A stretch of DNA of 58,264 nucleotides from an uncultured Pirellulales bacterium (GTDB lineage: Bacteria; Planctomycetota; Phycisphaerae; Sedimentisphaerales; Anaerobacaceae), in NCBI GenBank assembly GCA_964476475.1, contig CAYZAT010000001.1, positions 1-58,264 of the forward strand, given 5' to 3'. Below the pieces are notes generated by a model that searched no databases, had not been told where the DNA came from, and worked only from the letters and a program-made list of their open reading frames with translations. The first letter of the stretch is position 1. Every line of letters starts with the position of its first letter. Shown here one piece after another: positions 18,665 through 52,690 of this stretch. The position numbers and the translations under genes are program-made.

Positions 18665-18700
18665 GCACATTGACTCCTGTTGTTTCTTTTCCAAAATCAA

Positions 18701-23853: not shown

Positions 23854-23870
23854 AGATTGGAGAAAGTACT

Positions 23871-33151: not shown

Positions 33152-34690
33152 ATGGAAAAAAGGCGGCATATCAGAGTTTTGCGTTGGCCCGTATTCATCA
33201 TTCTTTTGCTTGTTATTGTGGGCGGGAGCATCGGAGCGCTTTCCCGCTCTCGAAATACATCGAGCGCGAGCGCGGCCGGGTCCCCTTCCCCTTTGCTGAT
33301 TGATGATTTTTCGACCAATCGTTCAACCCCAAAAGCCGGGAAGGGATGGGAATTTGTTTCCGACCGGGTTATGGGGGGCATGTCAGTCGGAAGGATAGAA
33401 TACGGTATGGTGGACGGCCGGTCGTGCCTTCGCTTAGTGGGTTCGGTTCTGTTGGAGAATAACGGAGGCTTTATTCAGGCCCGCGGAACGCTCGGTCCCG
33501 GGGGCAGAAATTTTAATGCTCATGCGTACAAAGGTATCAAGCTGAGTGTCAAGGGCAATCGCCAGACGTACGCCATTCATTTAGGAACGAGAGATACCCG
33601 GCTGCCCTGGCAATTTTACGAGGCGCCCTTTTCAACCGATGAGTCGTGGCAGGAGATTCAGATTCCCTTTGAGACGTTCAAGCCGAATTCGTTGCGAAAG
33701 CCGCTCAATATCAAGGCCCTCACTACGCTTGCGGTCGTGGCGAAAGGAAGGAAATTCGACGCCGATATTCGTGTGGACAACATCGCTTTCTATAAGGACA
33801 CAGCCATGTACAAGAAACTCACCCCGGAAGAGGAACGGGTCATCCTTCATAAAGGCACGGAAAGGCCGTTCACCGGCAGATACGTCAATCATTTTGCAGA
33901 CGGGACGTATACGTGTAAGCAATGCGGTGCAAAGCTTTTCGATTCTTCCAGCAAGTTTCATTCTAACTGCGGCTGGCCGAGCTTCGACGACCAAATCAAA
34001 GGGACCGTGAAAATGCAACCCGACGCCGACGGCGTCCGAACGGAAATTGTCTGTGCCAACTGCGGAGGCCATCTCGGCCATGTATTTAAAGGAGAGCGAC
34101 TGACCTCCAAGAACACGCGCTACTGTGTGAATTCGATTTCGATGGATTTTGTTCCCGAAGGACAAGACCAATCCCCAACCGCAAGCTCTGCTGAATCCGA
34201 GAAGCCCAAACAGGAAAGAGCGATTTTCGCTTCGGGATGTTTCTGGGGAACAGAGTATCATCTGCAAAAAGTTCCCGGCGTGATATCCACGACCGTTGGC
34301 TATACGGGGGGACGGACAAAAAATCCGACCTACAAACAAGTGTGCACGGACAAAACGGGCCACGCCGAAGCGGTTGAAGTGGTCTATGATCCGTCGAAAA
34401 CGAATTACGAGCAGTTGGCCCGTTTATTCTTCGAGACGCACGACTTCACTCAGCTAAATCGCCAGGGACCCGACGTGGGTAAGCAATACCGTTCCGCCGT
34501 ATTCTATCTCGATGAAAAGCAGAAAGACGTTGCCGCCGGACTGATTGCGACCCTGAAGAAGAAGGGATTCGACGTGAAAACCGAACTGACGCCCGCGTCG
34601 AAATTCTGGCCCGCTGAACTCTATCATCAGGATTACTACAAGAAAAACGGAAAAACACCGTATTGCCACATCTATCGGAAGATCTTTTGA
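33152..34690 (+). CDS. Membrane-anchored CIA30-like domain fused to MsrB and MsrA (methionine sulfoxide reductase B/A)
   Basis: The N-terminal TM segment is VLRWPVFIILLLVIVGGSIGAL. The CIA30-like region reads LIDDFS...GWEFVSDRVMGGMS...NGGFIQAR...VDNIAFY. MsrB shows CKQCG...CANCGGHLGHVF...RYCVNS. MsrA shows FASGCFWGTEYH...YHQDYY. Confidence 0.85.
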   Translation: MEKRRHIRVLRWPVFIILLLVIVGGSIGALSRSRNTSSASAAGSPSPLLIDDFSTNRSTPKAGKGWEFVSDRVMGGMSVGRIEYGMVDGRSCLRLVGSVLLENNGGFIQARGTLGPGGRNFNAHAYKGIKLSVKGNRQTYAIHLGTRDTRLPWQFYEAPFSTDESWQEIQIPFETFKPNSLRKPLNIKALTTLAVVAKGRKFDADIRVDNIAFYKDTAMYKKLTPEEERVILHKGTERPFTGRYVNHFADGTYTCKQCGAKLFDSSSKFHSNCGWPSFDDQIKGTVKMQPDADGVRTEIVCANCGGHLGHVFKGERLTSKNTRYCVNSISMDFVPEGQDQSPTASSAESEKPKQERAIFASGCFWGTEYHLQKVPGVISTTVGYTGGRTKNPTYKQVCTDKTGHAEAVEVVYDPSKTNYEQLARLFFETHDFTQLNRQGPDVGKQYRSAVFYLDEKQKDVAAGLIATLKKKGFDVKTELTPASKFWPAELYHQDYYKKNGKTPYCHIYRKIF

Positions 34691-34776: not shown

Positions 34777-34806
34777 TTGACGCCAACCCGGTTTGTCGAG
34801 TATAAG
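34777..34806 (+). promoter_or_regulatory. Sigma70-type promoter TTGACG-N18-TATAAG for family member D
   Basis: The sequence is tttttttcTTGACGccaacccggtttgtcgagTATAAGtag, with an 18-nt spacer and a T7 tract directly upstream of the -35. It lies about 260 nt upstream of ATG 35067. Confidence 0.5.
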
Positions 34807-34903
34807 TAGTATTCAAGGTTCGTTGGATTATCGGACCTCAAGCAGAGGATGTGTATTCAGTTGATGGCTTTGTTTCTCGGAAAAATCGCCCTTATGGGGG
34901 ATT

Positions 34904-34994
34904 GGGATGGGCAGAAAGGAGGTCATGACATGTCGAAATGAATTGGTCCGGGCAGCTACGGATCAAGCACGTCGAAAATGAAGCCGAAAATGAT
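34904..34994 (+). promoter_or_regulatory. Conserved 5' leader block of the family (copy D)
   Basis: The sequence gggatgggcagaaaggaggtcatgacatgtcgaaatgaattggtccgggcagctacggatcaagcacgtcgaaaatgaagccgaaaatga aligns with the A and C copies. Confidence 0.45.
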
Positions 34995-35066
34995 AATCGG
35001 CGGCTTCGGTGCGTGACCGGAGCGAAATTTCCAATCAGTTTTCGGTTAGAAGAAGGAGGCAACACA

Positions 35067-37331
35067 ATGAGAAATCTAAAGTTAGTTTTCGTAGTCGTAT
35101 TGGCATTGTGCACGATGGCTATGGCGTCAGACATAGCATTCTATGTCGGAGCGCCTAACATCGATGGCTGGTATGATGTGGATACAATGAATGCGGACGC
35201 TGAAACCATCATTGTCGAATCGGGACATCTTTTCGGCGATGTCCAGAAGTTCAACGACGATCAGTTTGATGACTTTGGTGCCTGGGTCGATGAGCGGACG
35301 GATGACGGTAAAATGGACATTATCTGGCTTAATGGATGCGTGCCCAGTGTTCTCTATCCTTTCCCAAACCTGGAACCGGATGGCTCACGTGCTGAAGCAT
35401 GGCTCGATGGTGGGAATATGTTCATCAACGTCGGCGACTGGTTTGCATACTGCTCGTATGAAGGTGGACCTCGACAGCCTGATAACGGCCCAAGTGGTGC
35501 AGCGAACGTCCTTGACCTTTCTTCGGGTATTATCGTATCCGCTGATAATACGACCATGACCGTGACACCAACAGGACAGGAATATCTCCCCAGTCTCGGT
35601 GACTCCGTCATAACGTATCGACCCGTTGTTCTCACTGCGGTTGTCGCCCCCTGGGAAGTTGCTGCGATATTCGCCTCTCCAGGCGGCTCGGATGATCCGG
35701 CCTTAGAACAACAAGCCGATCCCGTGGTTATTCATAACACGGAGACGGATGGTTACGTTGCTTTTGTCAACCAGTCTGCAGGTAGCGGCCCTCCCGGCTG
35801 GCTCGACGATCGAGGTTTGACCTGTGCCGAATTTATCAACAACTGGGTCAACAGTGAGATCGGATTAGGCAGGGGTAATCCGATTGCCCGCAGCCCGGAT
35901 CCCAAAGATGGCGCTCTCCATGAGGATACGTGGGTTACGTTGTCGTGGAAAGCGGGCGCTTTTGCCGTTTCGCACGATGTATATTTAGGTGATGATCAAG
36001 AGGTCGTCGGCAATACCACTCCGGACTCTGACGTATTCCAGGGCAACCAGGCAGCAACGTTTATCGTGGCCGGTTTCCCGGGATTCCCTTACCCGGAGGG
36101 TCTGGTGCCGGGGACGACATACTACTGGCGCATCGACGAGGTTAATGAGGCGGATCCGAACAGTCCGTGGAAGGGTGATGTCTGGAGCTTCTCCATTCCG
36201 CCCAAGACGGCGTACAATCCCGATCCTTCCGATGGATCTCAGATTGCCGACGCGAATGATCCCACGCTGAGCTGGACGTCAGGCTACGGTGCCAAATTGC
36301 ATACTGTGTATTTTGGCAACGATTATGATGAAATAAACAACGCCACCGGCGGCATGATGAGCGGTGTTGCACTCTACCGTCCCGGCCAACTCGACCATGA
36401 GAAGGTTTTCTACTGGCGGGTGGATGAGTTTGATGCGGTCGAGACGCACAAAGGCGATGTCTGGGGCTTTTCGACGCCGGGCGCCGTGGGCGCTCCGCAG
36501 CCGGCCTATGGTGCCACGGATGTGGCGATGAATGCCACGCTGACCTGGACGGCTGCCACGAACGCCGCCTCGCACCAGCTTTACCTTGGGACGGACAAAG
36601 AGGCCGTGCGTGCCGCCGGTGCCGGTTCCCCCGAAGACAAAGGCTCCATGGCTCCGGGCGCTGAGAGTTACGATCCCGGTTTGCTTGAAGCGGGCACGAC
36701 TTATTACTGGCGCGTGGACGCAGTCGATGCTCAGGGCAATACATCAAAAGGTCTCGTTTGGATCTTCACGACGGGAGCTTTCCTCGTTGTGGACGACTTC
36801 GAGAGCTATACCGATGACGATGCGGCCGGCGAAGCCATCTGGCAACACTGGATCGACGGCTTCGGCGTGGCCGACAACGGCGCGCAGGTCGGTTATCTGG
36901 TTCCCCCGTATTGCGAGCAAACAATCGTTCATGGCGGTGCTCAGTCGATGCCGCTCTTGTACGTCAACGAAGCCGGTGTAACGAATTCAGAGGGATCGTT
37001 GACGTTAACAGCGCCGCGTGACTGGACAGAAGGCGGTGTTGCTGAATTGTCACTTTGGTTCCGAGGGAGTTCGGACAATGCGCTCGATCCCTTGTACGTG
37101 TCTGTGGCCAACAGCGCCGGCGCCCCAGCAGTAGTGGCGAACGATGATGCCGAAGCAGCCGCGATCCGTAGCTGGACTCAGTGGCGCATCCCGTTACAGA
37201 CTTTGGCGGATCAAGGCATTAGCCTGGGTAACGTGGACAAGATCGCGATTGGCCTGGGCAGCAAAGGCGGTGCCGCAGTCGGTGGTTTGGGCACAATGTA
37301 TATTGATGACATCCGACTGTATCAACCTTGA
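35067..37331 (+). CDS. Exported family member D: unclassified ~270-aa head / 3x repeat / C-terminal IDDIRLY module
   Basis: AGGAGG lies 8 nt upstream of ATG 35067, whereas the track's 34938 start lies inside the conserved leader. The signal peptide is MRNLKLVFVVVLALCTMAMA. Repeats and C-terminal module match the paralogues and the protein ends MYIDDIRLYQP. Confidence 0.85.
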   Translation: MRNLKLVFVVVLALCTMAMASDIAFYVGAPNIDGWYDVDTMNADAETIIVESGHLFGDVQKFNDDQFDDFGAWVDERTDDGKMDIIWLNGCVPSVLYPFPNLEPDGSRAEAWLDGGNMFINVGDWFAYCSYEGGPRQPDNGPSGAANVLDLSSGIIVSADNTTMTVTPTGQEYLPSLGDSVITYRPVVLTAVVAPWEVAAIFASPGGSDDPALEQQADPVVIHNTETDGYVAFVNQSAGSGPPGWLDDRGLTCAEFINNWVNSEIGLGRGNPIARSPDPKDGALHEDTWVTLSWKAGAFAVSHDVYLGDDQEVVGNTTPDSDVFQGNQAATFIVAGFPGFPYPEGLVPGTTYYWRIDEVNEADPNSPWKGDVWSFSIPPKTAYNPDPSDGSQIADANDPTLSWTSGYGAKLHTVYFGNDYDEINNATGGMMSGVALYRPGQLDHEKVFYWRVDEFDAVETHKGDVWGFSTPGAVGAPQPAYGATDVAMNATLTWTAATNAASHQLYLGTDKEAVRAAGAGSPEDKGSMAPGAESYDPGLLEAGTTYYWRVDAVDAQGNTSKGLVWIFTTGAFLVVDDFESYTDDDAAGEAIWQHWIDGFGVADNGAQVGYLVPPYCEQTIVHGGAQSMPLLYVNEAGVTNSEGSLTLTAPRDWTEGGVAELSLWFRGSSDNALDPLYVSVANSAGAPAVVANDDAEAAAIRSWTQWRIPLQTLADQGISLGNVDKIAIGLGSKGGAAVGGLGTMYIDDIRLYQP

Positions 37332-37389
37332 GCAACTGCGGATAAGTTGGCATTGCGTAGATTAGAATAAGGTTGAGTTGATATCAAAT

Positions 37390-37425
37390 CGGGGCCTATG
37401 CCGGTGCATTACGGTGTAGGCCCCG
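37390..37425 (+). terminator. Stem-loop after member D (putative terminator)
   Basis: cggggccta(37390-37398)...taggccccg(37417-37425) forms a 9-bp GC-rich stem. The sequence is related to the hairpin at 44350-44377. No clear U tract follows. Confidence 0.45.
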
Positions 37426-37533
37426 GTCATTGTCGGTCAGCAAGACAGAAAAGCGCAGAGCGTCTATTTGTCTTCCGTTGCGATTTCCCCATGTTCTATC
37501 GATGGGATATACTGCGTCATCGGGGGATTTTCC

Positions 37534-37563
37534 TTGACGGGCCATTCGTCGATTTGGTATAAG
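37534..37563 (+). promoter_or_regulatory. Sigma70-type promoter TTGACG-N18-(tgg)TATAAG for the E-F-G operon
   Basis: The sequence is attttccTTGACGggccattcgtcgatttggTATAAGtaa, with an 18-nt spacer. It lies about 200 nt upstream of ATG 37771. Confidence 0.5.
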
Positions 37564-37770
37564 TAACGTGAGTGGAGCGTGTGCCTTTTGGGAAGGCATC
37601 TGATGCCTTCAAAATACGCAATGGGTGCAGTTCCAGTGGTTTGTCGAATTGAGGAGGAGGCATTATGCATTATACAAGGCACAGAATAAGAGGGGGACTC
37701 CGTTCTTTGGCATAAGAAGATTCTTACATTTCAGTTAACAACGAGTCTGTTTTTGAAAAGGAGGATTACT

Positions 37771-39765
37771 ATGTTTCAAAAATTGGTCTATTTGTTTTCT
37801 TTTATTTTCATGCTGAGCCTGGTCGGTGTTAGCGGCGGCGCTGAAGGCCTGAAAGGCGAGTATTATCATGCGAGTATCTCAGCGGAGGCCTGGCAGAATC
37901 TGGTGTTCACTCGCATTGATCCGACGGTGAACTTCGATTGGAGTACGAACTCGCCGGATCCGTCCATGAATGACAATGGTTTCATGGTGCGGTGGACGGG
38001 CACGATTGAAGTGCCGAATTCTGAGACCTACACGTTCACCCTCCGGACAGACGACGGCGCCAAGTTATGGTTGAATAATGAACTCATTGCCGACACCTGG
38101 ACCGAGGCCAAGAAATGGCAGGCCACGCGTGAGGGTGTTATCGAAGACAGCGGCAATTTTGTCTTAACAGGCGGGCAGCCATACGAGATTATTCTGGAGT
38201 ACTATGAGAGAAGTAATAATGCCGTATGTGAGCTATCCTGGTCCACTTCGACATTGGCCCGGGAAGCCATCCCGAGCCGGTATCTGTCGCCGGAGAGGCC
38301 GTACCCGCGTGATCCGGACCCGTCGGATGGCGCCATGGTTCGAGATACATGGGTGAGCCTTGGCTGGAGGCCCGGAGATTTTGCGGTCTCGCACGATGTT
38401 TACTTCGGTGAAAATTTGGATGAGGTACGTGAGGGGGGCGGTGACACGTTCTACGGCAACCAGACATCGACAGATTTTGTTGTGGGATTTCCTGGATTTC
38501 CGTATCCGGACGGTCTTGTTCCGGGCACAACCTACTACTGGCGAATCGTCGAGGTCAATGATTTGCACCCCAAAAGCCCGTGGAGTGAAGGCCCGGTCTG
38601 GAGTTTTTCGATTGCTCCTAAGACCGCCTTTAGTCCCAACCCGGCCGATGGTGCCGAATTTGTGGGTCCGGACGATGTGGAACTGAACTGGGAAGCCGGC
38701 TTGGGAGGTGTGCTGCACACGGTGTATTTCGGGGATAGTTTTGATGGTGTCAACAATGCCGCCGGGGGATTCCCACAGGGACCGAAGATCTATAAGCCCG
38801 GCTCGCTTGAACGAGAGAAGATTTACTATTGGCGCGTCGATGAGTTCGACGCCCTCGCGACATACAAAGGCGATATCTGGAGCTTTACGACCCCGGGCGC
38901 CGTTGGAAGTCCCAAACCCTCAAATAAATCCACCGATGTGGGAATGAATGCGATTCTAAGCTGGACGGCATCGGATTCTGCGGCATCGCACCACGTTTAC
39001 TTTGGCACCGAACAAGACGCGGTCCGGAATGCTGATACCGGTTCGCCTCAATACAAAGGCTCCAAGGCGTTGGGTGCTGAAATCCTTGATCCCGGACTCC
39101 TCGAGCCGGACGCCGTTTATTATTGGCGCGTGGATGACGTCGATGCCCAGGGCAATGTATCAACAGGTCCTCTCTGGAGCTTTGCGACGGGCACTTTCCT
39201 GCTCGTGGATGATTTCGAAGGCTATACCGATGACGATACAAACGGCGAGGCGATTTGGCAAACGTGGATCGACGGCTTCGGCGTTGCGGATAACGGCGCC
39301 CAGGTCGGCTATTTGGTCCCTCCGTATTGTGAGCAACAAATCGTGCATGGAGGTTTGCAGTCCGTGCCGCTCACGTATGTCAACGAGGCCGGCGTATCGA
39401 ATTCAGAGGCGACATTGACGTTAACGGCGCTGCGGGACTGGACGGTCTCAGGCGTGGGTGAATTGTCGCTCTGGACCCGGGGCGATATGACCAATGCCGC
39501 CGAGCCATGGTATGTGGCGATCTCCAATACCAACGGAGCGCCGGTGGTTTGGGCTCTTGATGATCCGCGTGCCGCACAAAACATCGCGTGGAGACAGTGG
39601 CGCATTGCTCTACAGTCTTTTGCCGATCAGGGGATTAATCTAACGAATGTGGACAAGATCGCGATTGGCCTGGGTAACAAAGGCGGCGCTGCGACCGGCG
39701 GATCAGGAACGGTGTACATTGACGACATCCGGCTGTATCGAGCGGGCGAAGCGGCAACGCCGTAA
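37771..39765 (+). CDS. Exported family member E: PA14 head / 3x repeat / C-terminal IDDIRLY module
   Basis: RBS is aaggaggattact before ATG 37771. The PA14-like region reads GLKGEYYHA...VNFDW...GFMVRWTGTIEVPNSETYTFTLRTDDGAKLWLNNELI. Three repeats and the C-terminal module follow, ending VYIDDIRLYRAGEAATP. Confidence 0.85.
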   Translation: MFQKLVYLFSFIFMLSLVGVSGGAEGLKGEYYHASISAEAWQNLVFTRIDPTVNFDWSTNSPDPSMNDNGFMVRWTGTIEVPNSETYTFTLRTDDGAKLWLNNELIADTWTEAKKWQATREGVIEDSGNFVLTGGQPYEIILEYYERSNNAVCELSWSTSTLAREAIPSRYLSPERPYPRDPDPSDGAMVRDTWVSLGWRPGDFAVSHDVYFGENLDEVREGGGDTFYGNQTSTDFVVGFPGFPYPDGLVPGTTYYWRIVEVNDLHPKSPWSEGPVWSFSIAPKTAFSPNPADGAEFVGPDDVELNWEAGLGGVLHTVYFGDSFDGVNNAAGGFPQGPKIYKPGSLEREKIYYWRVDEFDALATYKGDIWSFTTPGAVGSPKPSNKSTDVGMNAILSWTASDSAASHHVYFGTEQDAVRNADTGSPQYKGSKALGAEILDPGLLEPDAVYYWRVDDVDAQGNVSTGPLWSFATGTFLLVDDFEGYTDDDTNGEAIWQTWIDGFGVADNGAQVGYLVPPYCEQQIVHGGLQSVPLTYVNEAGVSNSEATLTLTALRDWTVSGVGELSLWTRGDMTNAAEPWYVAISNTNGAPVVWALDDPRAAQNIAWRQWRIALQSFADQGINLTNVDKIAIGLGNKGGAATGGSGTVYIDDIRLYRAGEAATP

Positions 39766-39867
39766 GTCATGCATTTGCTGAGCTTGCAGCTAACCTGACG
39801 CTTATTCGGGACCTGTGCGGGCGCATCTGCATAGGTTCCGTTTCTAATTCAAATAGGGAGAAAACAA

Positions 39868-42054
39868 ATGACGCGTATAATGCACATTTTCTTCAGTTGT
39901 CTTATCGTTAGTTTGATGTTTGCGGGGCCAGGCGAGGCTCAGATTAGTTCCGATGCCATTCTTGGGATATGGCTGCTTGACGAGGGAGTAGGGGATATAG
40001 CTGAGGATGCCTCCGGAAACGGTCATAATGGCACACTCGTGAACGCACCGGAATGGATTACCGGTCAATTGGGCACGGCTCTGTCTTTCGTGTCGGGTAG
40101 TTATGTGGATTGCGGCAATGATCCGGTCCTGAATGTCGGTGTTTTCTCGGTTTCATTTTGGTGCAATATCGCCAACTTACAAACCTGGCTCCACATGGTT
40201 TCGAGAGGTCGGCACTTTGGCAGCGGCAATCCCGGTGGTAACAACTGGGGCGTTATGATGTGCGACGGGAGAGAGACCATCCGTTTTGAAGTGTTTAATG
40301 ACACCAGTTGGACGAGGGTTGATGCCGATACCACTCTCGGTGAATGGCACCACGTCGTTGCCACATTTGACGTGAGTGACGGTAAGCAGCAGCTTTACCA
40401 TGACGGCGAATTGGCTGCAGACGGAACGGGAGGGATTATGCTTCAAGAGGATAAGCCGTTGTTTATCGGCGCTCAATCTCGCGATACGGGACCCGGAGCG
40501 TCCTTCGAAGGGAGTATTGATGAGGTCGGCTATTTTAACGCTGTACTGACGCCTGACGATATTGAAACGATCATGGATGCGGGTCTGTCGGCCATCACCG
40601 GCGGCCTTCCCACGGCCCGGAGCCCGCAACCGGCGGATGGTGCGATACACCCGGACACGTGGGTGACTCTTTCCTGGAAGGCGGGGGATTTTGCTGTTTC
40701 GCACGATGTGTATTTAGGCGATAATTTCAACGATGTGGAACAAGCCACACGGGATTCGGATCTATTCCGCAGCAACCAGGTGACGGACTTTTATATCGCC
40801 GGGTTCCCGGGTTTCGCCTATCCGGACGGCCTTGTGCCGGGAACAATGTATTACTGGCGGATCGATGAAGTGAATGACGCCGATCCGGACAGTCCGTGGA
40901 AAGGCGATGTCTGGAGTTTCCTGGTTCCGCCCAAGACGGCGTACAATCCGAATCCGGCTGACGGTGCCCAGATTGCGGGTACGACGGTGACTTTGATCTG
41001 GACACCGGGCTTCGGTGCGAAAATGCACACGGTTTATTTCGGCGATGATTATAACGAGGTCGAAAATGCCGTTGTGGGCGTCCCGACCGGAAGCGTAACG
41101 CACAATCCCGGTCAGCTTGAAGAAGAGAAGGTCTATTATTGGCGGATCGATGAATTCGACGGTTTCGAGACGTATAAAGGGGGTGTCTGGACCTTTACGA
41201 CACCGGGAGCGGTTGGAAATCCGCTACCGGCCAATGGGGCGACCGATGTGGGAATGGCGCCGATCTTAAGCTGGACGGCGGCAAATACCGCCGCTTCGCA
41301 CGAAGTGTATTTCGGGCGGGACAAAGACGCCGTACGTAACGCGGATACCGGCTCACCCGAGTACAAAGGCCCCAAGACGCTCGGCGATGAAAGTTTCGAT
41401 ACCGGATTGCTTGAACTGGGGGCGACGTACTATTGGCGTGTGGACGAAGTGTATAATGGAAATCCGGTCAGAGGCCCTGTCTGGAGCTTTACGGTAGGTG
41501 ATTTCCTTCTGGTCGAAGATTTCGAGAGCTATACCGACAATGATGCGGATGGTGAAGCGATCTGGCAAACGTGGATCGACGGCTTCGGCGTCGCCAATAA
41601 CGGCGCGCAGGTCGGCTACCTGCTTCCACCATACGCAGAACAAACGATCGTTCATAGCGGCGATCAGTCCATGCCGTTGATCTATTTGAACGAGGCCGCT
41701 GTCGCCAACTCAGAAGCGGCGAGGACGTTGACGGTGCGGGACTGGACCGTGGCGGGTGTTGAGGAATTATCGCTTTGGACCCGGGGGGATTCGGCCAATG
41801 CCGCCGAACCGTTGTATGTGGCGATCTCCAACTCGGCCGGCTCGCCGGGGATCGTGGCCCACGAGGATTTAACTGTGGCGACGAATGCGGCTTGGAGACA
41901 GTGGCGGATTTCACTGCAAACCTTTGCCGATCAGGGCATCAACCTGGGGAACGTCGATAAGATCGCCATCGGTTTAGGTAATCAATCCGGTATGACATCA
42001 GCCGGTGGTACGGGTACGATGTATATCGATGATATCCGGTTGTATCGACCTTAA
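39868..42054 (+). CDS. Exported family member F: LamG (type 2) head / 3x repeat / C-terminal IDDIRLY module
   Basis: After a signal peptide the LamG_3-like head reads LGIWLLDEGVGDIAEDASGNGHNGTL...GSIDEVGYFNAVLTPDDIETIM. The protein ends MYIDDIRLYRP. Only ~100 nt separate it from E with no promoter motif, so it is probably co-transcribed. Confidence 0.9.
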   Translation: MTRIMHIFFSCLIVSLMFAGPGEAQISSDAILGIWLLDEGVGDIAEDASGNGHNGTLVNAPEWITGQLGTALSFVSGSYVDCGNDPVLNVGVFSVSFWCNIANLQTWLHMVSRGRHFGSGNPGGNNWGVMMCDGRETIRFEVFNDTSWTRVDADTTLGEWHHVVATFDVSDGKQQLYHDGELAADGTGGIMLQEDKPLFIGAQSRDTGPGASFEGSIDEVGYFNAVLTPDDIETIMDAGLSAITGGLPTARSPQPADGAIHPDTWVTLSWKAGDFAVSHDVYLGDNFNDVEQATRDSDLFRSNQVTDFYIAGFPGFAYPDGLVPGTMYYWRIDEVNDADPDSPWKGDVWSFLVPPKTAYNPNPADGAQIAGTTVTLIWTPGFGAKMHTVYFGDDYNEVENAVVGVPTGSVTHNPGQLEEEKVYYWRIDEFDGFETYKGGVWTFTTPGAVGNPLPANGATDVGMAPILSWTAANTAASHEVYFGRDKDAVRNADTGSPEYKGPKTLGDESFDTGLLELGATYYWRVDEVYNGNPVRGPVWSFTVGDFLLVEDFESYTDNDADGEAIWQTWIDGFGVANNGAQVGYLLPPYAEQTIVHSGDQSMPLIYLNEAAVANSEAARTLTVRDWTVAGVEELSLWTRGDSANAAEPLYVAISNSAGSPGIVAHEDLTVATNAAWRQWRISLQTFADQGINLGNVDKIAIGLGNQSGMTSAGGTGTMYIDDIRLYRP

Positions 42055-42129
42055 TAAGCTACGAATAAGGAAAGACCGACAGTTTAAAATCGGGGTCTAT
42101 GAACTTCCAGTTTGAAAAAGGAGAAGAAA

Positions 42130-44319
42130 ATGACTCGTACAATCCTATTTTTCATCAGTTGTCTTATCGTTAGTTTGATGTTTGCAGGGCCAAGTCAGGC
42201 TCAGATTAGTGCCGATGCCATTGTTGGGATATGGCTTCTTGACGAGGGAGTGGGGGATGTGACGGAAGATGCCTCCGGCAATGGCCATGATGGCACCCTC
42301 ATGGACGGACCGAAGTGGATTGCCGGGCATTTCGGCAATGCCCTGGATTTCTCCGGGTCATCGAGCTACGTAGATTGCGGGAATGCCAAAGCCCTGAATG
42401 TCGAGATTTTCTCCATCTCCTTTTGGTGCTATATCCCAGGCACTCAAAGTTGGAACCATATGATTTCACGGGGTGAGCATCATGGCGGCGGCAATCCTGG
42501 CGCCGTCAATTGGGGCGTGATGATGTACGCCGACCAGGAGACCATCCTTTATGAAGCGTACAATGACACCGTTAAGCCGAGTGTCAGCGCCAGTACGACG
42601 ACCGGAGAATGGCATCATGTCGTGGCCACCCATAGCGGAACTGAGATGGAACTCTACCATGACGGCCAATCCGCCGGAACCTCATCGACAACGGGGATCA
42701 TGCTTGATGAAAATTTGCCGTTGTTTATTGGCGCTCAATCTCGCGCGAGCGGTCCATCGGACTACTTTGAGGGCAGCATTGACGATGTGGGCTATTTTAA
42801 TATCGTTCTTGCACCTGACAATATTGAAGAGATCATGAACAACGGCCTTGCGGCAATCGCGGGCGGCATTGCCGTGGCCACGAGACCCCAACCGGTTGAC
42901 GGCGCCCTGCACGCAGATACGTGGATAACCCTTTCCTGGAAAGCGGGGGATTGTGCCGTTTCTCACGACGTGTATTTAGGGGATGATTTCGAGGTTGTCG
43001 AACAGGCCACACCGGATTCGGATGTGTTCCGCGGCAATCAGGTGACAGACTTTTATGTCGCCGGCTTTCCCGGTTTCGCCTATCCGGAAGGTCTTGTGCC
43101 GGGGATGACTTATTACTGGCGCATCGACGAAATCAACGATCTGAATCCGGAAAGCCCGTGGAAAGGCGACGTCTGGAGCTTTTCGATTCCGCCCAAGACG
43201 GCGTATAACCCGATACCGGCCGATGGGGACGGGCTGGCCAGTACGACGGTCACTCTGAACTGGACGCCGGGCTATGGCGCGAAATTGCATACGGTCTTCT
43301 TGGGCGATGATTTTGGCGAAGTGAGTAATGCCACGGTGGGCGTCCCGACCGGATCGCCGTCCTATACGCCCACCTCGCTGGAGCCGGAGAAGGTCTATTA
43401 CTGGCGGGTGGATCAATTCGACGGTCTCCAAACGTATAAAGGTGACGTCTGGGTCTTTACGACGCCGGGTGCGGTCGGCAATCCACAACCGGCCAATGGG
43501 GCGATCGATGTGGGGATGACACCGATCTTAAGCTGGACGCCGGCGGATAACGCTGCCTCACACCAGGTGTACTTCGGATTGGGCAAGGAGACGGTGCGCA
43601 GCGCCGAGGCCGGTTCACCCGAGTACAAGGGATCCAAAGCGTTGGGGGATGAAACCTACGATCCCGGGTTGCTTGAACTGGGCACGACGTACAATTGGCG
43701 TATAGACGAGGTATATAGTGGAAATCCCGTCAAAGGCCCCGTCTGGAACTTCACGGTCGGTGATTATCTGATGATTGAGGATTTCGAGAGCTATACTGAT
43801 AACGATGCCGATGGCCAGGCTATCTGGCAAACATGGATCGACGGCTTCGGCGTTGCCAATAATGGCGCGCAGGTCGGCTACTTACTCCCACCGTACGCCG
43901 AACAGACGATTGTTCATGGCGGCGATCAGTCCATGCCATTAATTTATACCAACGAGGCCGGCGTAGCCAACTCGGAAGGGGCGATGATGTTAACGACCCT
44001 TCGGGACTGGACCGTGGCGGGTGTTGAGGAATTATCGCTCTGGACCCGGGGCGATGCGGCCAGTGCCGCCGAACCGTTGTATGTGGCGATCTCCAACTCG
44101 GCCGGCGCGCCCGGGATCGTGGCTCACGAGGATCTGACTGCCGCGACAAACACAGCCTGGAGACGGTGGCGGATTCCATTGCAGGCTTTTGCCGATCAGG
44201 GCATCAACCTGGGGAACGTCGATAAGATCGCCATTGGCCTGGGTAATCAATCCGGTATGACGTCGGCCGGCGGGACAGGCACGATGTATATTGATGATAT
44301 CCGGTTGTATCGGCCTTAA
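42130..44319 (+). CDS. Exported family member G: LamG (type 2) head / 3x repeat / C-terminal IDDIRLY module
   Basis: This is a close paralogue of F; the last ~300 nt are nearly identical by eye. RBS is aaaggagaagaaa before ATG 42130. Confidence 0.9.
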   Translation: MTRTILFFISCLIVSLMFAGPSQAQISADAIVGIWLLDEGVGDVTEDASGNGHDGTLMDGPKWIAGHFGNALDFSGSSSYVDCGNAKALNVEIFSISFWCYIPGTQSWNHMISRGEHHGGGNPGAVNWGVMMYADQETILYEAYNDTVKPSVSASTTTGEWHHVVATHSGTEMELYHDGQSAGTSSTTGIMLDENLPLFIGAQSRASGPSDYFEGSIDDVGYFNIVLAPDNIEEIMNNGLAAIAGGIAVATRPQPVDGALHADTWITLSWKAGDCAVSHDVYLGDDFEVVEQATPDSDVFRGNQVTDFYVAGFPGFAYPEGLVPGMTYYWRIDEINDLNPESPWKGDVWSFSIPPKTAYNPIPADGDGLASTTVTLNWTPGYGAKLHTVFLGDDFGEVSNATVGVPTGSPSYTPTSLEPEKVYYWRVDQFDGLQTYKGDVWVFTTPGAVGNPQPANGAIDVGMTPILSWTPADNAASHQVYFGLGKETVRSAEAGSPEYKGSKALGDETYDPGLLELGTTYNWRIDEVYSGNPVKGPVWNFTVGDYLMIEDFESYTDNDADGQAIWQTWIDGFGVANNGAQVGYLLPPYAEQTIVHGGDQSMPLIYTNEAGVANSEGAMMLTTLRDWTVAGVEELSLWTRGDAASAAEPLYVAISNSAGAPGIVAHEDLTAATNTAWRRWRIPLQAFADQGINLGNVDKIAIGLGNQSGMTSAGGTGTMYIDDIRLYRP

Positions 44320-44349
44320 ACGAGTAAGGAAGGATCAATCGTTGAAAAT

Positions 44350-44377
44350 CGGGGCCTATGCTGGTGCATAGGCCCCG
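44350..44377. terminator. Perfect 12-bp stem / 4-nt loop hairpin between convergent genes (bidirectional terminator candidate)
   Basis: The hairpin is cggggcctatgc-tggt-gcataggccccg. It lies between the stop of member G (44319) and the stop of the GH2 gene (44403). Confidence 0.6.
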
Positions 44378-44402: not shown

Positions 44403-47726
<3,324 letters not shown>

Positions 47727-48358: not shown

Positions 48359-51300
48359 ATGTCTTCAATCTTGGGCCTTCCGTTCTCTGCTTTCATTTCT
48401 GATCCATCATTTACAGTTTCTTGCGTTCCTGGCGCGGAGTATGTGTGGAGTACGTATTCGGCGGGAGGAATACAATGGCTTTTTCCGTTCGTTTTTGCTA
48501 CAATACGGATTTGGATGGTTTTGATGAAAGACACCCTAATCTCAAGAAATGTAAAATGTAAAGATCAAAAATCAAGATTGTGGAATCCGCCGAAGGCGGA
48601 TGACTTCCTTAATTTTGCACTTTGCATTTTGATTTTTACTTTTGTTGCGGTCCCGCCCAGCCTGGGCCTGGTGGTGACGGAGGTGATGTACCACCCGGCG
48701 GATGGCCAGGAAGAACTGGAATTCATTGAGCTGTATAACAACCGGGCCGTTTTTGAAGACCTGAGCGGCTACACCTTCACAAACGGTATCCAATTCACGT
48801 TCGAGCGAGGTACGATCCTCGAAGCCGGGAAGTATCTTGTCGTCACACGGAATCCGGTGGCCTTTGCAGCGGTCTATCCCGGTATTCCGTTCCGTTCGAT
48901 TGCCGGTCCTTTTTCCGGCCGACTCGCCAATGACGGCGAACGAATCGAGCTGTCGGACGACGCCGGGCAGATCATCATTTCGTTCCGATACGACGAGGAG
49001 AGTCCCTGGCCTGTCTCACCCGATGGGGCCGGGCACTCGCTGGTCCTTGCCAGGAGCGGCGGCGATCCGGAAGAAGCGTCCACCTGGGCGCCGAGTACCT
49101 CCATCGGCGGCACGCCGGGTGAGCCGGATGAGGTTCAGGCGTCGGGTACGGAAAATCCGAGTCTTGCGGTATTGGTCAGTTTGGGCCACCCGGGTCGGTA
49201 TTTCAAGGGACACTCGGAACCATCGCCGGATTCGGCCGGCCGGGCAACGACGGACTGGACGAAAATCGACTTTCAGGACAATCCCATTCGGACCGCATGG
49301 AGCGAAGGGCCCAGCGGGTATGGCTACAGTTCGGAAGCTGATGAACTGCAATACATCGGAACCCAGACGAACGACATGTCCGGCAATTATATGTCTATCT
49401 ACGCTCGTTTTCCGTTCACATTGTCCTACAGCCAGGTTGCATCCTTTTCTCAGTTGCAGGCGGAGGTTCACTATGATGATGGTTACGTGCTTTATCTGAA
49501 CGGGACGCGCGTGGCGGCCTCAGACGGCATGTCGGGCCATCCGCCGGCCTATAATCAAAGCGGAGGTTCGGCGACCGATCCTTCAGCGGACCTTGTGGAT
49601 CTAACGAACCGGCTGAATCTGCTGGTCCACGGAACGAATGTGCTGGCCATGCAGGTGCATAATGCCACTCTCTCCGGCAGTTCGGATTGCTTCGGCAGCC
49701 CGATTTTGCGGGCCATCGTCGGAAACATCGGGGGCGGTGATGATCCTCGCGCCCGCGTCGTCATCAACGAGTTGCTGACCAATAGCGATGTGGATTCGGG
49801 CTCTGGTTGGATCGAATTGTACAATCCGGGACCGGTCCCCGTGGACGTCGGCCACGTTTATCTAAGTGATGATCGGGCCGATTTATTGAAGTATAAGCTT
49901 CCGGACGGAGTGGTGTTGGAGACGGGTGAGTTCTGGACCGTTAGCGAGGGCACAGGGCCGGATGATTTCGATTTTGGACTCGCCTCGACCGGCGAGACGG
50001 TATATGTCACAGCGGCGACCAATGATCCGGTACCGGTTCGCGTGCTGGATGCGGTGCGTTTCGGGGCGATGGAGCCGGACGTGACCTTTGGACGGTTCCC
50101 GGACGGATCGAAGACGTTGAGTGTTCTCAGTGAAGCGACGTTCGCCGGGCCCAACACCCAGCCGTGGATCGGGGACATCGTCATCAACGAGATCATGTAC
50201 CACCATGCCCTGCGGGACGAGCGCTACGAGTATGTTGAATTGTACAATCGAGGGAGCAGTACAGTTTCGTTGGACGGCTGGGCCTTCACCGACGGCATCG
50301 ATTACACCTTTGCCTCCGGTACGCAAATAGGACCGGAGGCGTATCTCGTCGTGGCCAAGGATCCGGTTTTCCTTTCGGGTATATATTCGAGCGTAGCTAT
50401 TGGCTCAAATCTCGTCGGTCCTTACACCGGGGGGCTAAGCGATCACAGCGAACGGATCCGTCTGTCGTATCCGCTCGAACATGTTGATCCGGATACGGGT
50501 GATGTCGAGGTTTCGATGGTGACGGCCGACGAGGTGACCTATTATGACGGCGGTCGATGGCCGAGCTGGGCCGACGGGCAGGGGGCCAGCCTGGAACTGC
50601 GCGATCCGCGAAGCGATAACGATACGCCCGATGCCTGGGCCGACAGTGACGAAAGCGCCAAGAGCACGTGGCAGCCGTTCACATTCACGATCGAAGCCAC
50701 CGATTCGAGATATACACACGATCAGGTAACGATTTTCGACGTTTTACTGCTCAATCGCGGGGAGGTTCTCCTCGATGATTTGTCGGTGACTATGGGGCGC
50801 GGCAATATTTTGAGCAACAGCGGATTCGAGAGCGCCGAAGCCAACTGGCGCCGCCTTGGCAATCACGTTCGGTCGTTTGCGACGACCGCCGATAGCCGAT
50901 CCGGATGGAGATCGTTGCACCTGATTTCAACGGGTCATGGCGATCCCGGAGCCAACCGCGTCAACCAGTCGATTCCCGGCGGAACGGCGGACCGGGTGAC
51001 TTTTAGCGGCTGGGCCAAATGGTTAAAAGGCAGTCGTTTCCTGTTGCTTCGGCTGTCGCGTGAGCTCTCCCCCATCCAACCGCCGCGACCGGCTCATGCG
51101 TTCGAGCTCGATATGCCGTTGAACCTGGGAACGCCCGGCCAACAAAATACGGCGTTTGTATCCAATCGCGGACCCGATATCCTCGACGTACAACACGCGC
51201 CTGCGCTACCGTCGTCCGGCGAGGCGATTGCCGTGACGGCCCGTATGAAAGATAATGACGGCGTCATGTCCGTTCTGCTCCACTATCGCTCCGAGGGCGA

Positions 51301-52690
51301 TAGCCGATTTAACAGCACGTTGATGACCGACAACGGCTCCGGTAACGATGAGGTTGCCGGGGACGGCATCTATACCGCTGCGATCCCCGGCGCCTCCGGC
51401 GGCACCATGCGGGCCTTCTATATCGAAGCCACCGACGGCGCGGCCATAACGCGATTCCCGACTCTACTGCAATCTACGGCCGAAGTGCCCGAGAGGACCT
51501 GCCTCGTCCGCGTGGGGGACACACAACTGGCGACCCCGTTTGCGACCTATCGCATCTGGTTGTCCGATGATGTGGTCAGTACGTTCCGTTCGCGGCCCAA
51601 TCTCTCGAACGAACTGCTGGACTGCACGTTTGTTTACAACGATACCGATGTCTTCTATAACGCCCGTCTCCGGTTCCGCGGCAGCCCGTTTATCCGGAGC
51701 GGAGCGAACCAGAATCCGCTCGGTCGAGAGGCTTATCGGATTACGTTCAATCCCGATCAAAAATTCGGGGACCGTGAGGAGATTAATATCGACACCGGCG
51801 AGGGGAGCAACCGCGGAATCCTCCAGGAACGCGCCTCTTATTGGTTCTATCAGCAAATGGGTCTGCAATACTCAAGACAGGAATTTGTGCGCCCAATCAT
51901 CAACGGCAATAGCCATTCCGCTTTCGAGGATGTTCGGAAAATCGACGGCGACTATATCGATCAATGGTTTCCGTTCGATAATGAAGGTTACATCCACAAA
52001 ATCGATGATTATTTTGAATACTCGGCGAATGGCACACAGCACAGGAACCTCGACGAAGGATTGAAGTACGATTCCAGACACCCCTTACTTAAAGAGACCT
52101 ACCGCTGGGGCTTCGAAAAGCGGTCGCATCGAGAGAACGATGATTGGCAACATCTGTTCGATTTGGCGGTTGCACTGAATACGTCGTCAAGCAGTACGAG
52201 ATACGAGCAGACCATCGAAGAGGTCATTCACCCCGAACATTTCGCCCGTGTTTTGGCGATTCGTCACGCCGTCGGCGACTGGGACAGCTATGGATACACG
52301 CGCGGCAAGAACAATTATTTCTATTATGCCCTCCCGGAGCGCAAGTGGTACCTTCTGCCCTGGGATATCGACTTCACGCTGGGATCGGGTAATGGGGCCA
52401 ACACGAACCTGTTCTCCGTCACGTCCAGCGAATTCCCGGAGGTCAAACAATTTCTGGATTATCCCAAATACAGGCAGATGTATCTGGATGCATTCAAAGA
52501 ATTGGTGAATGGCCCCTGGCAAACGTCGTATGGCACGTCCGATCCGCCGACGGCCTTCGATCAGTTCCTGGATGACGCGGCCGAGGCTTTAATTGCCGAT
52601 GGAGCCGGCAACGGCCGGAGAGATGGCATCAAACAATTCGTTCGTAACCGGCGAGCCTATATCCTGACACAAATCCCGGCCGGTCGCTAA
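48359..52690 (+). CDS. Giant protein with three lamin-tail domains, CBM-like modules and a C-terminal CotH kinase-like domain; true start uncertain (48359, 48515, 48524 or later)
   Basis: The LTDs are VVTEVMYHPADGQEELEFIELYNN, VVINELLTNSDVDSGSGWIELYNPG and IVINEIMYHHALRDERYEYVELYNRG. The CotH-like region reads YWFYQQMGL...VRKIDGDYIDQWFP...GYIHKIDDYFEY...WDSYGYTRGKNNYFYY...WYLLPWDIDFTLG. Residues ~63-93 of the track ORF are encoded by repeat family 1, copy 3. Confidence 0.85.
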   Translation: MSSILGLPFSAFISDPSFTVSCVPGAEYVWSTYSAGGIQWLFPFVFATIRIWMVLMKDTLISRNVKCKDQKSRLWNPPKADDFLNFALCILIFTFVAVPPSLGLVVTEVMYHPADGQEELEFIELYNNRAVFEDLSGYTFTNGIQFTFERGTILEAGKYLVVTRNPVAFAAVYPGIPFRSIAGPFSGRLANDGERIELSDDAGQIIISFRYDEESPWPVSPDGAGHSLVLARSGGDPEEASTWAPSTSIGGTPGEPDEVQASGTENPSLAVLVSLGHPGRYFKGHSEPSPDSAGRATTDWTKIDFQDNPIRTAWSEGPSGYGYSSEADELQYIGTQTNDMSGNYMSIYARFPFTLSYSQVASFSQLQAEVHYDDGYVLYLNGTRVAASDGMSGHPPAYNQSGGSATDPSADLVDLTNRLNLLVHGTNVLAMQVHNATLSGSSDCFGSPILRAIVGNIGGGDDPRARVVINELLTNSDVDSGSGWIELYNPGPVPVDVGHVYLSDDRADLLKYKLPDGVVLETGEFWTVSEGTGPDDFDFGLASTGETVYVTAATNDPVPVRVLDAVRFGAMEPDVTFGRFPDGSKTLSVLSEATFAGPNTQPWIGDIVINEIMYHHALRDERYEYVELYNRGSSTVSLDGWAFTDGIDYTFASGTQIGPEAYLVVAKDPVFLSGIYSSVAIGSNLVGPYTGGLSDHSERIRLSYPLEHVDPDTGDVEVSMVTADEVTYYDGGRWPSWADGQGASLELRDPRSDNDTPDAWADSDESAKSTWQPFTFTIEATDSRYTHDQVTIFDVLLLNRGEVLLDDLSVTMGRGNILSNSGFESAEANWRRLGNHVRSFATTADSRSGWRSLHLISTGHGDPGANRVNQSIPGGTADRVTFSGWAKWLKGSRFLLLRLSRELSPIQPPRPAHAFELDMPLNLGTPGQQNTAFVSNRGPDILDVQHAPALPSSGEAIAVTARMKDNDGVMSVLLHYRSEGDSRFNSTLMTDNGSGNDEVAGDGIYTAAIPGASGGTMRAFYIEATDGAAITRFPTLLQSTAEVPERTCLVRVGDTQLATPFATYRIWLSDDVVSTFRSRPNLSNELLDCTFVYNDTDVFYNARLRFRGSPFIRSGANQNPLGREAYRITFNPDQKFGDREEINIDTGEGSNRGILQERASYWFYQQMGLQYSRQEFVRPIINGNSHSAFEDVRKIDGDYIDQWFPFDNEGYIHKIDDYFEYSANGTQHRNLDEGLKYDSRHPLLKETYRWGFEKRSHRENDDWQHLFDLAVALNTSSSSTRYEQTIEEVIHPEHFARVLAIRHAVGDWDSYGYTRGKNNYFYYALPERKWYLLPWDIDFTLGSGNGANTNLFSVTSSEFPEVKQFLDYPKYRQMYLDAFKELVNGPWQTSYGTSDPPTAFDQFLDDAAEALIADGAGNGRRDGIKQFVRNRRAYILTQIPAGR
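48547..48636. repeat. AT-rich ~95-bp imperfect palindromic element (family 1), copy 3, inside the 5' end of the LTD-CotH ORF
   Basis: The sequence is aaatgtaaaatgtaaagatcaaaaatcaagattgtggaa tccgcc gaa ggcgga tgacttccttaattttgcactttgcattttgattttt, with a central stem at 48586-48591/48595-48600. Confidence 0.75.

Follow-up and report, generated by a model that had tools for sequence, protein, structure and literature searches.

A family of probably exported planctomycete proteins that joins exchanged N-terminal heads to a constant stalk and C-terminal module

The described systems that come closest to the family reported here are of several kinds. In the CWB2 cell-wall proteins of Clostridioides difficile, which combine a variable domain with three CWB2 repeats, and in SLH-domain surface proteins, a constant module that contains repeats is joined to variable domains, and there are dozens of paralogs. 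The SusE/F-like surface glycan-binding proteins (SGBPs) of Bacteroidota are non-catalytic proteins with Ig-like domains and domains like carbohydrate-binding modules (CBMs), and they are found near glycan-degrading genes. Also, CBM11, CBM30, CBM8, and the N-terminal CBM-like domain of GH50 β-agarases belong to the galactose-binding-domain-like superfamily. Here, we describe a family of probably exported proteins from a window of 58,264 nucleotides (contig CAYZAT010000001.1 of assembly GCA_964476475.1, from an uncultured bacterium that GTDB places in the Sedimentisphaerales). Within this window, four tandem genes, which we call D, E, F, and G (35067–44319), encode dissimilar N-terminal heads in front of a constant stalk of three repeats and a constant C-terminal module, or C-module.

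This family resembles each of the known systems in part. It shares the overall plan of the CWB2 and SLH proteins, but there is no sequence or fold relationship to them, the envelope here is of the Gram-negative type, and anchoring by the constant part is a proposal in our case. A SusE-like protein (7m1b) is among the Foldseek matches of our model of the third repeat plus the C-module. However, SGBPs are N-terminally lipidated and are encoded in SusC/D loci, whereas our proteins have type I signal peptides (as read) and we found no SusC/D-like genes in the window. The domain order is also reversed, with an N-terminal head and a C-terminal constant module. The predicted fold of the C-module is like that of CBM11, CBM30, CBM8, and the agarase domain, but the C-module is just 13–17% identical to the CBMs, does not match any Pfam CBM model at threshold, is joined to binding domains instead of to enzymes, and has a long conserved N-terminal segment that is not confidently modelled. 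By analogy, the family would work most like the SGBPs or the anchored families of the CWB2/SLH type, although it has the defining features of none of these. As judged by sequence comparisons, the C-module falls into no described family of CBMs, sorting domains, or dockerins.

The original prediction, which was made from the DNA sequence of the window alone, described D, E, F, and G as four paralogs in tandem with a common stalk and C-terminal module. The open reading frames (ORFs) and our alignment agree: the alignment of the four proteins has few gaps from residue ~275 of D to the C-terminus, and the N-terminal 185–274 residues cannot be aligned. At the DNA level, the genes are four in-register copies with a spacing of 2.26–2.42 kb and 60–88% identity, so the array is not due to chance. 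All four genes are on the + strand. Gene D (35067–37331) encodes 754 amino acids from MRNLKL, within an ORF that opens at 34938. Its signal peptide (residues 1 to ~21) and an α/β head that extends to residue 274 occupy 35067–35888, followed by repeat 1 (35889–36200), repeat 2 (36201–36476), repeat 3 (36477–36773), and the C-module (36774–37328). Gene E (37753–39765; 670 amino acids) has a PA14 head at 37753–38307, its repeats at 38308–38616, 38617–38892, and 38893–39189, and its C-module at 39190–39762. Gene F (39868–42054; 728 amino acids) has a Laminin_G_3 head at 39868–40617, repeats at 40618–40929, 40930–41202, and 41203–41496, and the C-module at 41497–42051. In gene G (42112–44319), a Laminin_G_3 head (42112–42879) precedes the repeats (42880–43191, 43192–43464, and 43465–43758) and the C-module (43759–44316). 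G has 735 amino acids, or 729 if it begins at 42130, which is the start of the database copy; the exact protein is present on JGI metagenome contig 3300017987 Ga0180431_10000539, which matches the window.

The original prediction covered these four genes; the family extends to the − strand near the start of the window. Gene B (4168–6306, − strand; 712 amino acids) is a fifth member, with a LamG head, three repeats, and the C-module. Gene A (1319–4048, − strand; 909 amino acids) is a sixth member with the same parts, except that its C-module is split by a nested insert. Gene X (3 to ~599, − strand) encodes a signal peptide and a LamG-like head, and the remainder lies beyond the edge of the window. 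The head of X matches Laminin_G_3 at E = 3e-5, which is below the cut-off, and by eye it resembles the head of family representative P0257. The window therefore contains six complete family members and probably a seventh that is cut off. By direct reading, all six complete N-termini are Sec type I signal peptides, with a basic n-region, 12–15 hydrophobic residues, and a cleavage site with small residues like A-x-A, and the signal peptides of the window members lack a canonical lipobox.

The heads are as unlike as had been proposed (an unclassified head of α/β appearance in D, PA14 in E, and LamG in F and G), as both Pfam and AlphaFold2 (AF2) models agree. The head of E matches PA14 (PF07691) over model positions 3–144 of 147 (E = 1.4e-25, 90.3 bits versus a threshold of 24). 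The heads of F (83.5 bits, 2.3e-23), G (83.8 bits, 1.8e-23), A (71.4 bits), and B (68.3 bits) match Laminin_G_3 (PF13385), for which the threshold is 27.6 bits. Among the NCBIfam models, TafC matched the LamG head of G, at a score far below the cut-off. If alignment is forced, the heads of D, E, and F/G are 10–16% identical to each other, versus 65% for the heads of F and G.

The head of D does not match any family in Pfam or NCBIfam. A precomputed match to PF27344 was faint and could not be reproduced, and when the D head was compared to the PDB by sequence, the only matches were designed Pizza and tetratricopeptide-repeat (TPR) proteins, which we consider spurious and due to low complexity. 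The AF2 model of the D head, from an alignment of 81 homologs, is a confident α/β domain with a predicted local distance difference test score (pLDDT) of 91. In Foldseek, it weakly resembles (E = 1.5e-3 to 5e-2, TM = 0.36–0.48) the middle domains of GH164 and GH42, which are GATase1-like, as well as STM3548 and ThuA-like proteins. The cysteine in the WLNGC motif of the D head is not kept in homologs P0235 and P0207. D-type heads are widespread as free-standing secreted proteins of ~283 amino acids (e.g., P0157, P0169, P0213, and P0235), and its occurrence on its own shows directly that this head is a mobile module. The gene neighborhoods of these free-standing homologs were uninformative: we saw a gene similar to extracytoplasmic-function (ECF) sigma factors once and GH16/GH5 once. 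As a separate observation, the free-standing proteins P0157, P0169, P0213, and P0235 (loci L080–L082) end in a conserved short tail, ..VEPxGKLxxTWGxxK, which D lacks. Could this tail be a sorting or interaction tag?

Head exchange is supported because the unrelated head folds sit on scaffolds that are 51–90% identical, depending on the segment, and divergence alone cannot produce this pattern; because the D head is found free-standing elsewhere; and because the pair of A and B shows an event that can be mapped. The heads and the first repeats of A and B are 78–79% identical. In repeat 2, repeat 3, and the C-module, A and B are 58–69% identical, which is no closer than to other paralogs (B and E are 73% identical in repeat 2, and B and D are 70% identical in repeat 3). 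Between A and B, the synonymous divergence (dS) has a value of 0.57 for the head and 0.94 for repeat 1. It is saturated across repeats 2 and 3 and amounts to 1.57 for the C-module. The maximum chi-square test places a breakpoint at scaffold codons 92–140 (p ≤ 0.002, permutation), which is the border between repeat 1 and repeat 2. Past residue ~355 of B, the nucleotide identity of A and B in windows of 40 codons drops from 77–91% to 58–70%, while B–E and B–D stay at 70–78%. A fast-evolving A lineage would not be sufficient to explain this, since in repeat 3, A is not closer to B (58% identity) than it is to F and G (61%). The breakpoint data therefore indicate that the exchanged unit was the signal peptide, the head, and repeat 1.

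F and G have a different history: they are whole-gene tandem duplicates, with dS of 0.62–0.86 along the entire gene. Their C-modules are 90% identical. We ruled out gene conversion as the cause, as dS is nearly uniform along the gene. Instead, this identity reflects stronger purifying selection after the duplication: at similar dS, the ratio dN/dS is 0.08 for the C-module and 0.29 for the head. So, the core of the original idea, a cassette-like family with heads swapped onto a fixed scaffold, holds for the unrelated heads and for the A–B breakpoint, but the similarity of the F and G C-modules is not due to exchange. Neighbor-joining trees (66 members, no bootstraps) were star-like for each of three parts of the scaffold, namely repeat 1, repeats 2–3 together with the C-module, and the C-module by itself, so we relied on the synonymous-site and maximum chi-square tests. 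In these trees, presumed orthologous pairs from separate metagenome-assembled genomes (MAGs) did cluster.

To see how widely the family is distributed, we used the C-module to search a database clustered at 90% identity and found 897 proteins. Where source names were given, all of them were “hypothetical protein,” and none of these proteins had a Pfam annotation. Apart from a single protein labelled as Gammaproteobacteria, the organism labels were those of MAGs from the Sedimentisphaerales, Phycisphaerales, or Planctomycetota. An exhaustive HMMER scan of representatives at 50% identity gave 3,709 matching clusters (E ≤ 1e-3), of which 525 reached E ≤ 1e-30. Among the divergent members with source names (P0263, P0296, P0321, and P0271), the three with organism labels are from Sedimentisphaerales or Phycisphaerales MAGs. 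We found no published description of the family in the open-access literature that we searched. The original prediction likewise named no characterized family for the repeats and the C-module.

Scanning one genome per species, we found 266 coding stretches with the C-module, and the best 78 loci were mostly from three MAGs. The copy number per genome is high: these three Sedimentisphaerales MAGs contain at least 40, at least 39, and at least 24 distinct ORFs with the C-module. Two or three members lie within ±3 kb at 34 of the 78 loci, so arrays like the one in our window are typical.

The architecture is stable among close relatives. We assembled a full-length set (n = 66) of the six window members and 60 proteins from MAG loci, keeping those in which all three repeats were detected and the head had 150 residues or more. 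All 66 have the order head, three repeats, and C-module, and two of them have an extra domain between repeats 2 and 3. Their heads form at least 14 groups that are not linked by BLAST, including 46 LamG, four CBM9, three CBM4_9, one divergent LamG, one with weak similarity to 3-keto-disaccharide hydrolase (ConA-like), and some without an assignment. Across a more diverse set of 149 representatives, 51 contain a further domain, LamG or PA14, that separates repeat 2 from repeat 3. In 17, the protein continues past the C-module with a tail, which is LamG in one protein and gives a weak dockerin-like match in another. The C-module ends within 20 amino acids of the C-terminus in 128 of the 149. A few of these proteins contain only C-modules, or C-modules alternating with stalk repeats.

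We also examined the Pfam content of 104 representatives, using the best 25 families per listing. Laminin_G_3 was the most common (42 of 104), followed by PA14 (15), Glug (13), F5_F8_type_C (7), HpiC1-like (3; this overlaps with CBM4_9), CBM9 (2), and DUF1349 (2). Kelch, WD40, CBM96, and Peptidase_C10 were each found in one representative. Among the families listed, there was no glycoside hydrolase, lyase, or esterase, although weak singletons are possible.

The stalk and the C-module have the dimensions that were originally proposed, three repeats of ~95 amino acids and a module of ~190: we measured 104, 92, and 99 amino acids for repeats 1, 2, and 3, and 185 amino acids for the C-module. The repeats share the motif W..G..A.SH.VY.G ... 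YYWR.DE ... G.VW.F and do not reach the threshold of any model in Pfam (2025) or NCBIfam (2026). For NCBIfam, we analyzed D, E, F, and G; A and B were compared to Pfam. The best Pfam matches of the repeats, Pur_ac_phosph_N (PF16656) and Ig_Rha78A_N (PF25788), are below threshold: in the window proteins, the scores for fn3, Pur_ac_phosph_N, and Ig_Rha78A_N are 12–28 bits (at most 27.7 versus 30), and the cut-offs are 25–30 bits. Pur_ac_phosph_N was matched at E < 1e-4 by 17 of 59 family representatives (the best was 5e-8). In the AF2 model, repeat 3 is a seven-strand β-sandwich of the Ig/fibronectin type III (FN3) kind, with pLDDT of 80–98, and Foldseek matches it to N-terminal domains of rhamnosidases and to tandem FN3 domains in the PDB with probabilities of 0.94–1.0. 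The closest known domains are the FN3-like N-terminal domains of purple acid phosphatases (PF16656) and GH78 rhamnosidases (PF25788), by sub-threshold similarity and, for the rhamnosidases, by fold. In contrast to those domains, the stalk repeats fall below the curated cut-offs and form a conserved subfamily of their own with SH.VY.G, YYWR.DE, and VW.F. The stalk repeats are FN3-like by predicted fold and lie below the family thresholds by sequence.

The C-module runs from DDFE.YTDDD to IDDIRLY and is the most constrained part of these proteins, with 67–90% identity between paralogs versus unrelated heads. It does not match any Pfam or NCBIfam model at threshold, and this includes the models for CBMs, type IX secretion system (T9SS) tails, PEP-CTERM, and dockerins. 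No match to a sorting signal or dockerin (Por_Secre_tail, PEP-CTERM, or LPXTG) was seen at the C-termini of D–G with Pfam and NCBIfam, or of A and B with Pfam. Among distant relatives, P0271 has a weak dockerin-like tail after its C-module (21.4 bits versus 22.9). Faint matches were to Exop_C, which is galactose-binding-like (E = 0.0066–0.15), and to choice_anch_J (14.5 bits versus 30). Exop_C was faintly matched by 5 of 22 diverse C-modules. A profile search of the PDB with these 22 modules found the N-terminal domain of 5z06 at E = 0.004 and nothing else, while a plain sequence search of the PDB with the C-module again yielded nothing beyond designed Pizza and TPR proteins, as spurious matches of low complexity. 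So, neither the repeats nor the C-module maps at threshold to a characterized family of CBMs or secretion signals.

The AF2 model of repeat 3 plus the C-module has pLDDT of 83, and most of the C-module is a well-modelled β-sandwich. Its Foldseek matches are to CBM11 (1v0a), CBM30 (1wzx, 2c24, and 1wmx), CBM8 (7t7y), and the N-terminal domain of GH50 agarase, with E ~ 1e-4, TM = 0.5–0.6 per target, and 13–17% identity across ~145–175 aligned columns. Because no model matches at threshold and the fold matches are to CBMs, we consider the C-module to be a new sequence family with a predicted β-jelly-roll fold of the CBM type. The acidic start (DDFE) and end (IDDIR) of the module resemble the structural calcium site that is typical of CBMs, and the jelly roll is probably stabilized by calcium. 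The insert in the C-module of gene A (at about 1720–2110, − strand) is ~110–130 amino acids long, is nested in the loop after ..SLWFHG, and does not match Pfam. The same loop (at residue ~99 of the module) hosts nested domains in 27 of 149 representatives, and two representatives match DUF1349 (ConA-like). This loop is a tolerated insertion hot spot.

What might these proteins do? Judging from their domains, they are probably non-catalytic modular binding proteins that capture or stick to polysaccharides. The model that we put forward, and to which we give about an even chance, is that they are exported binding proteins whose heads provide specificity and whose C-module tethers them to the cell's own envelope. 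The proteins would be exported by Sec, given their signal peptides as read. The N-terminal head, which is mostly a β-sandwich of the lectin or CBM type (LamG, PA14, CBM9, CBM4_9, or F5/8-C), would set the ligand specificity, presumably by binding glycans, with one specificity per paralog. The three FN3-like domains would act as a spacer. The C-module would mediate a step that is common to all paralogs, most likely tethering to a partner in the envelope, which might be a glycan or a protein. The cell would then display dozens of unlike heads for capturing polysaccharides or adhering to particles, and new specificities would come from tandem duplication and from recombination in which an existing scaffold receives a new head along with repeat 1. 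We favor tethering because the C-module is joined to binding domains and not to catalytic ones, is constrained, and is almost always terminal.

Some of our results weigh against this model. In distant relatives, the C-module can be internal, N-terminal, or present in 2–4 copies (three in P0241, and C-R-C-R-C in P0259, where R is a stalk repeat), and these arrangements look more like a CBM that acts by avidity than like an anchor. The ~45 most conserved residues of the module, YTDDD..IWQ.WIDGFGVA.NGAQVGYL.PPY.EQ, are modelled at low confidence (residues 105–149 of the model, or ~12–55 of the module; pLDDT < 50), which leaves about two thirds of the domain as the basis for assigning a fold. The D head does not correspond to any known lectin and has no predicted lectin character, and its resemblance to GATase1/ThuA-like proteins is weak (E ≥ 1.5e-3, TM ≤ 0.48). 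No partner gene recurs within ±3 kb of the 78 loci, where we looked for one: the largest cluster among 100 flanking ORFs from outside the family had four members (a sulfatase), so there is no fixed neighbor. Finally, the neighbor-joining trees do not show how frequent head exchange is.

Several of these points, along with the similarity of the predicted fold to CBM11, CBM30, and CBM8, would fit if the C-module were an ordinary substrate-binding CBM, from a new family that recognizes a common environmental polysaccharide. The proteins would then be free or loosely associated lectins, bivalent or multivalent, that cross-link or scavenge polymers. The faint Exop_C matches in 5 of the 22 diverse modules, the multi-copy and internal modules (P0241, P0259, and P0296), and the further lectin-type domain that is nested in the loop of the module in 27 of 149 representatives are all consistent with this. 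On the other hand, CBMs that target substrates are typically attached to enzymes, and no hydrolase, lyase, or esterase partner is among the families listed for the 104 representatives. Also, the very high conservation across at least 40 paralogs per genome and the almost constant C-terminal position suggest one invariant partner. We consider this explanation to be less likely than tethering, but it is the main alternative.

Two other roles for the C-module seem much less plausible. A conserved β-sandwich that sits at the very C-terminal end of many cargo-like proteins, whose N-terminal domains are diverse, could be a secretion or sorting domain, which would be read by the export or attachment machinery as the T9SS C-terminal domain is, and which might be removed after export. 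Genes of the type II secretion system (GspE/F-like) do adjoin two of the family loci. However, none of the NCBIfam sorting models matched, including the T9SS tail and PEP-CTERM; the module is also internal, N-terminal, or tandem in relatives; and it tolerates a large nested domain. Its 185 amino acids also make it about double the length of the C-terminal sorting domains that are known (T9SS tails have roughly 80–100 amino acids). We consider a sorting role to be improbable. We think it is more improbable still that the C-module is a small jelly-roll enzyme, similar to a lyase or a hydrolase, with the heads and stalk targeting it to its substrate. Jelly-roll enzymes do exist, and diverse members have near-invariant polar residues (E, H, N, and S/E) in EQ.IVHGG.QSMP..Y.N....SE. 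But no catalytic jelly-roll family is matched by sequence or fold, non-catalytic CBMs give the best fold matches, and the termini (DDFE and IDDIR) resemble the structural calcium site of CBMs.

A bolder version of the tethering model is that Phycisphaerae have an undescribed system for cell-surface display in which the C-module serves for docking, with one cell presenting at least 40 interchangeable lectin heads on FN3 stalks. This is speculation by analogy, and we regard it as rather doubtful. The C-module would then be a functional analog of dockerin–cohesin and CWB2/SLH anchoring, but with a CBM-like jelly roll as its framework. If so, surface display via the C-module would be the primary apparatus for polysaccharide capture in these bacteria and would correspond, in planctomycetes, to what the Sus-type SGBP systems are in Bacteroidota.

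The Sedimentisphaerales are among the anaerobic polysaccharide degraders that are richest in carbohydrate-active enzymes (PMC11131199). A family of at least 40 paralogs with lectin or CBM heads is an obvious candidate for binding or holding substrates in this order. To our knowledge, the Sedimentisphaerales do not have loci of the SusC/D type. The C-module is a candidate for a new family of CBMs or anchoring domains to define, and the heads are a natural library whose specificities could be read by glycan arrays. The family is also a clear case of domain-cassette evolution in an uncultured lineage, with both tandem duplication and a mapped exchange of a head with repeat 1.

The genes of the array share features downstream of their stop codons as well. 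GC-rich hairpins lie ~30–60 nt past the stop codons of D, E, and G. The hairpin after D (37390–37425, + strand) is ~60 nt past the stop, and its stem motif (CGGGGCCTA...TAGGCCCCG) is common to all three. The other two are terminator-like: the one after E (39807–39840, + strand) has a 15-bp stem and then a T run, and the one after G (44350–44377, + strand) has a 12-bp stem with 9 GC pairs. We saw no hairpin after F, so F and G probably share one transcript. There are 6 matches to the stem motif (CGGGRCCTRTGC...GCATAGGYYCCG) in the window, versus 0.98 expected. Five of these are within the hairpins (one arm after D and both arms after E and after G), and the sixth is isolated at 11343, with 1 mismatch. 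It appears that the 3' hairpin was duplicated along with the genes or that it is a terminator specific to the family.

Enzymes of glycan degradation are encoded near the array, as the original prediction had stated, but not all of the named ones are close or present. The GH2 gene (44403–47681, − strand) does adjoin gene G. The only sulfatase in the window (10196–11668) is 23 kb from the array, and Pfam did not detect a pectate lyase anywhere in the window. An apiosidase-like glycoside hydrolase and a BNR_4 protein are also within the window. These neighbors give the family a setting of polysaccharide degradation, which fits the proposed role. Two proteins that look exported have no Pfam match at E ≤ 0.01: one of 801 amino acids (16295–18700, − strand), which sits between the BNR_4 protein and a FAD_oxidored protein, and one of 586 amino acids (20622–22382, + strand). 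The 801-amino-acid protein could be an undescribed glycan-active enzyme and may be behind the earlier call of a pectate lyase.

We noticed a few other genes in the window. Directly upstream of D, 33152–34690 (+ strand) encodes a membrane-anchored fusion of a CIA30-like β-sandwich (which is weakly similar to SGBP_B_XBD) with MsrB (SelR) and MsrA (PMSR). Its layout suggests a methionine-sulfoxide reductase that is exported or periplasmic and whose N-terminal domain is CBM-like. About 0.7 kb past the 5' end of the GH2 gene, 48359–52690 (+ strand) encodes a protein of 1,443 amino acids in which three lamin-tail domains (LTD, 7.5e-43) are combined with a CotH kinase-like domain (4.6e-19) at the C-terminus. 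The row of genes at 52710–57012 (− strand) is a Bat/MoxR-like operon, with a MoxR-type AAA ATPase (56068–57012), DUF58 (54800–56188), and a transglutaminase-like protein (52710–54803). Finally, in line with the lineage that the homologs point to, 22492–25136 (+ strand) contains a DUF1800–DUF1501 gene pair, which is a common signature of the Planctomycetota.

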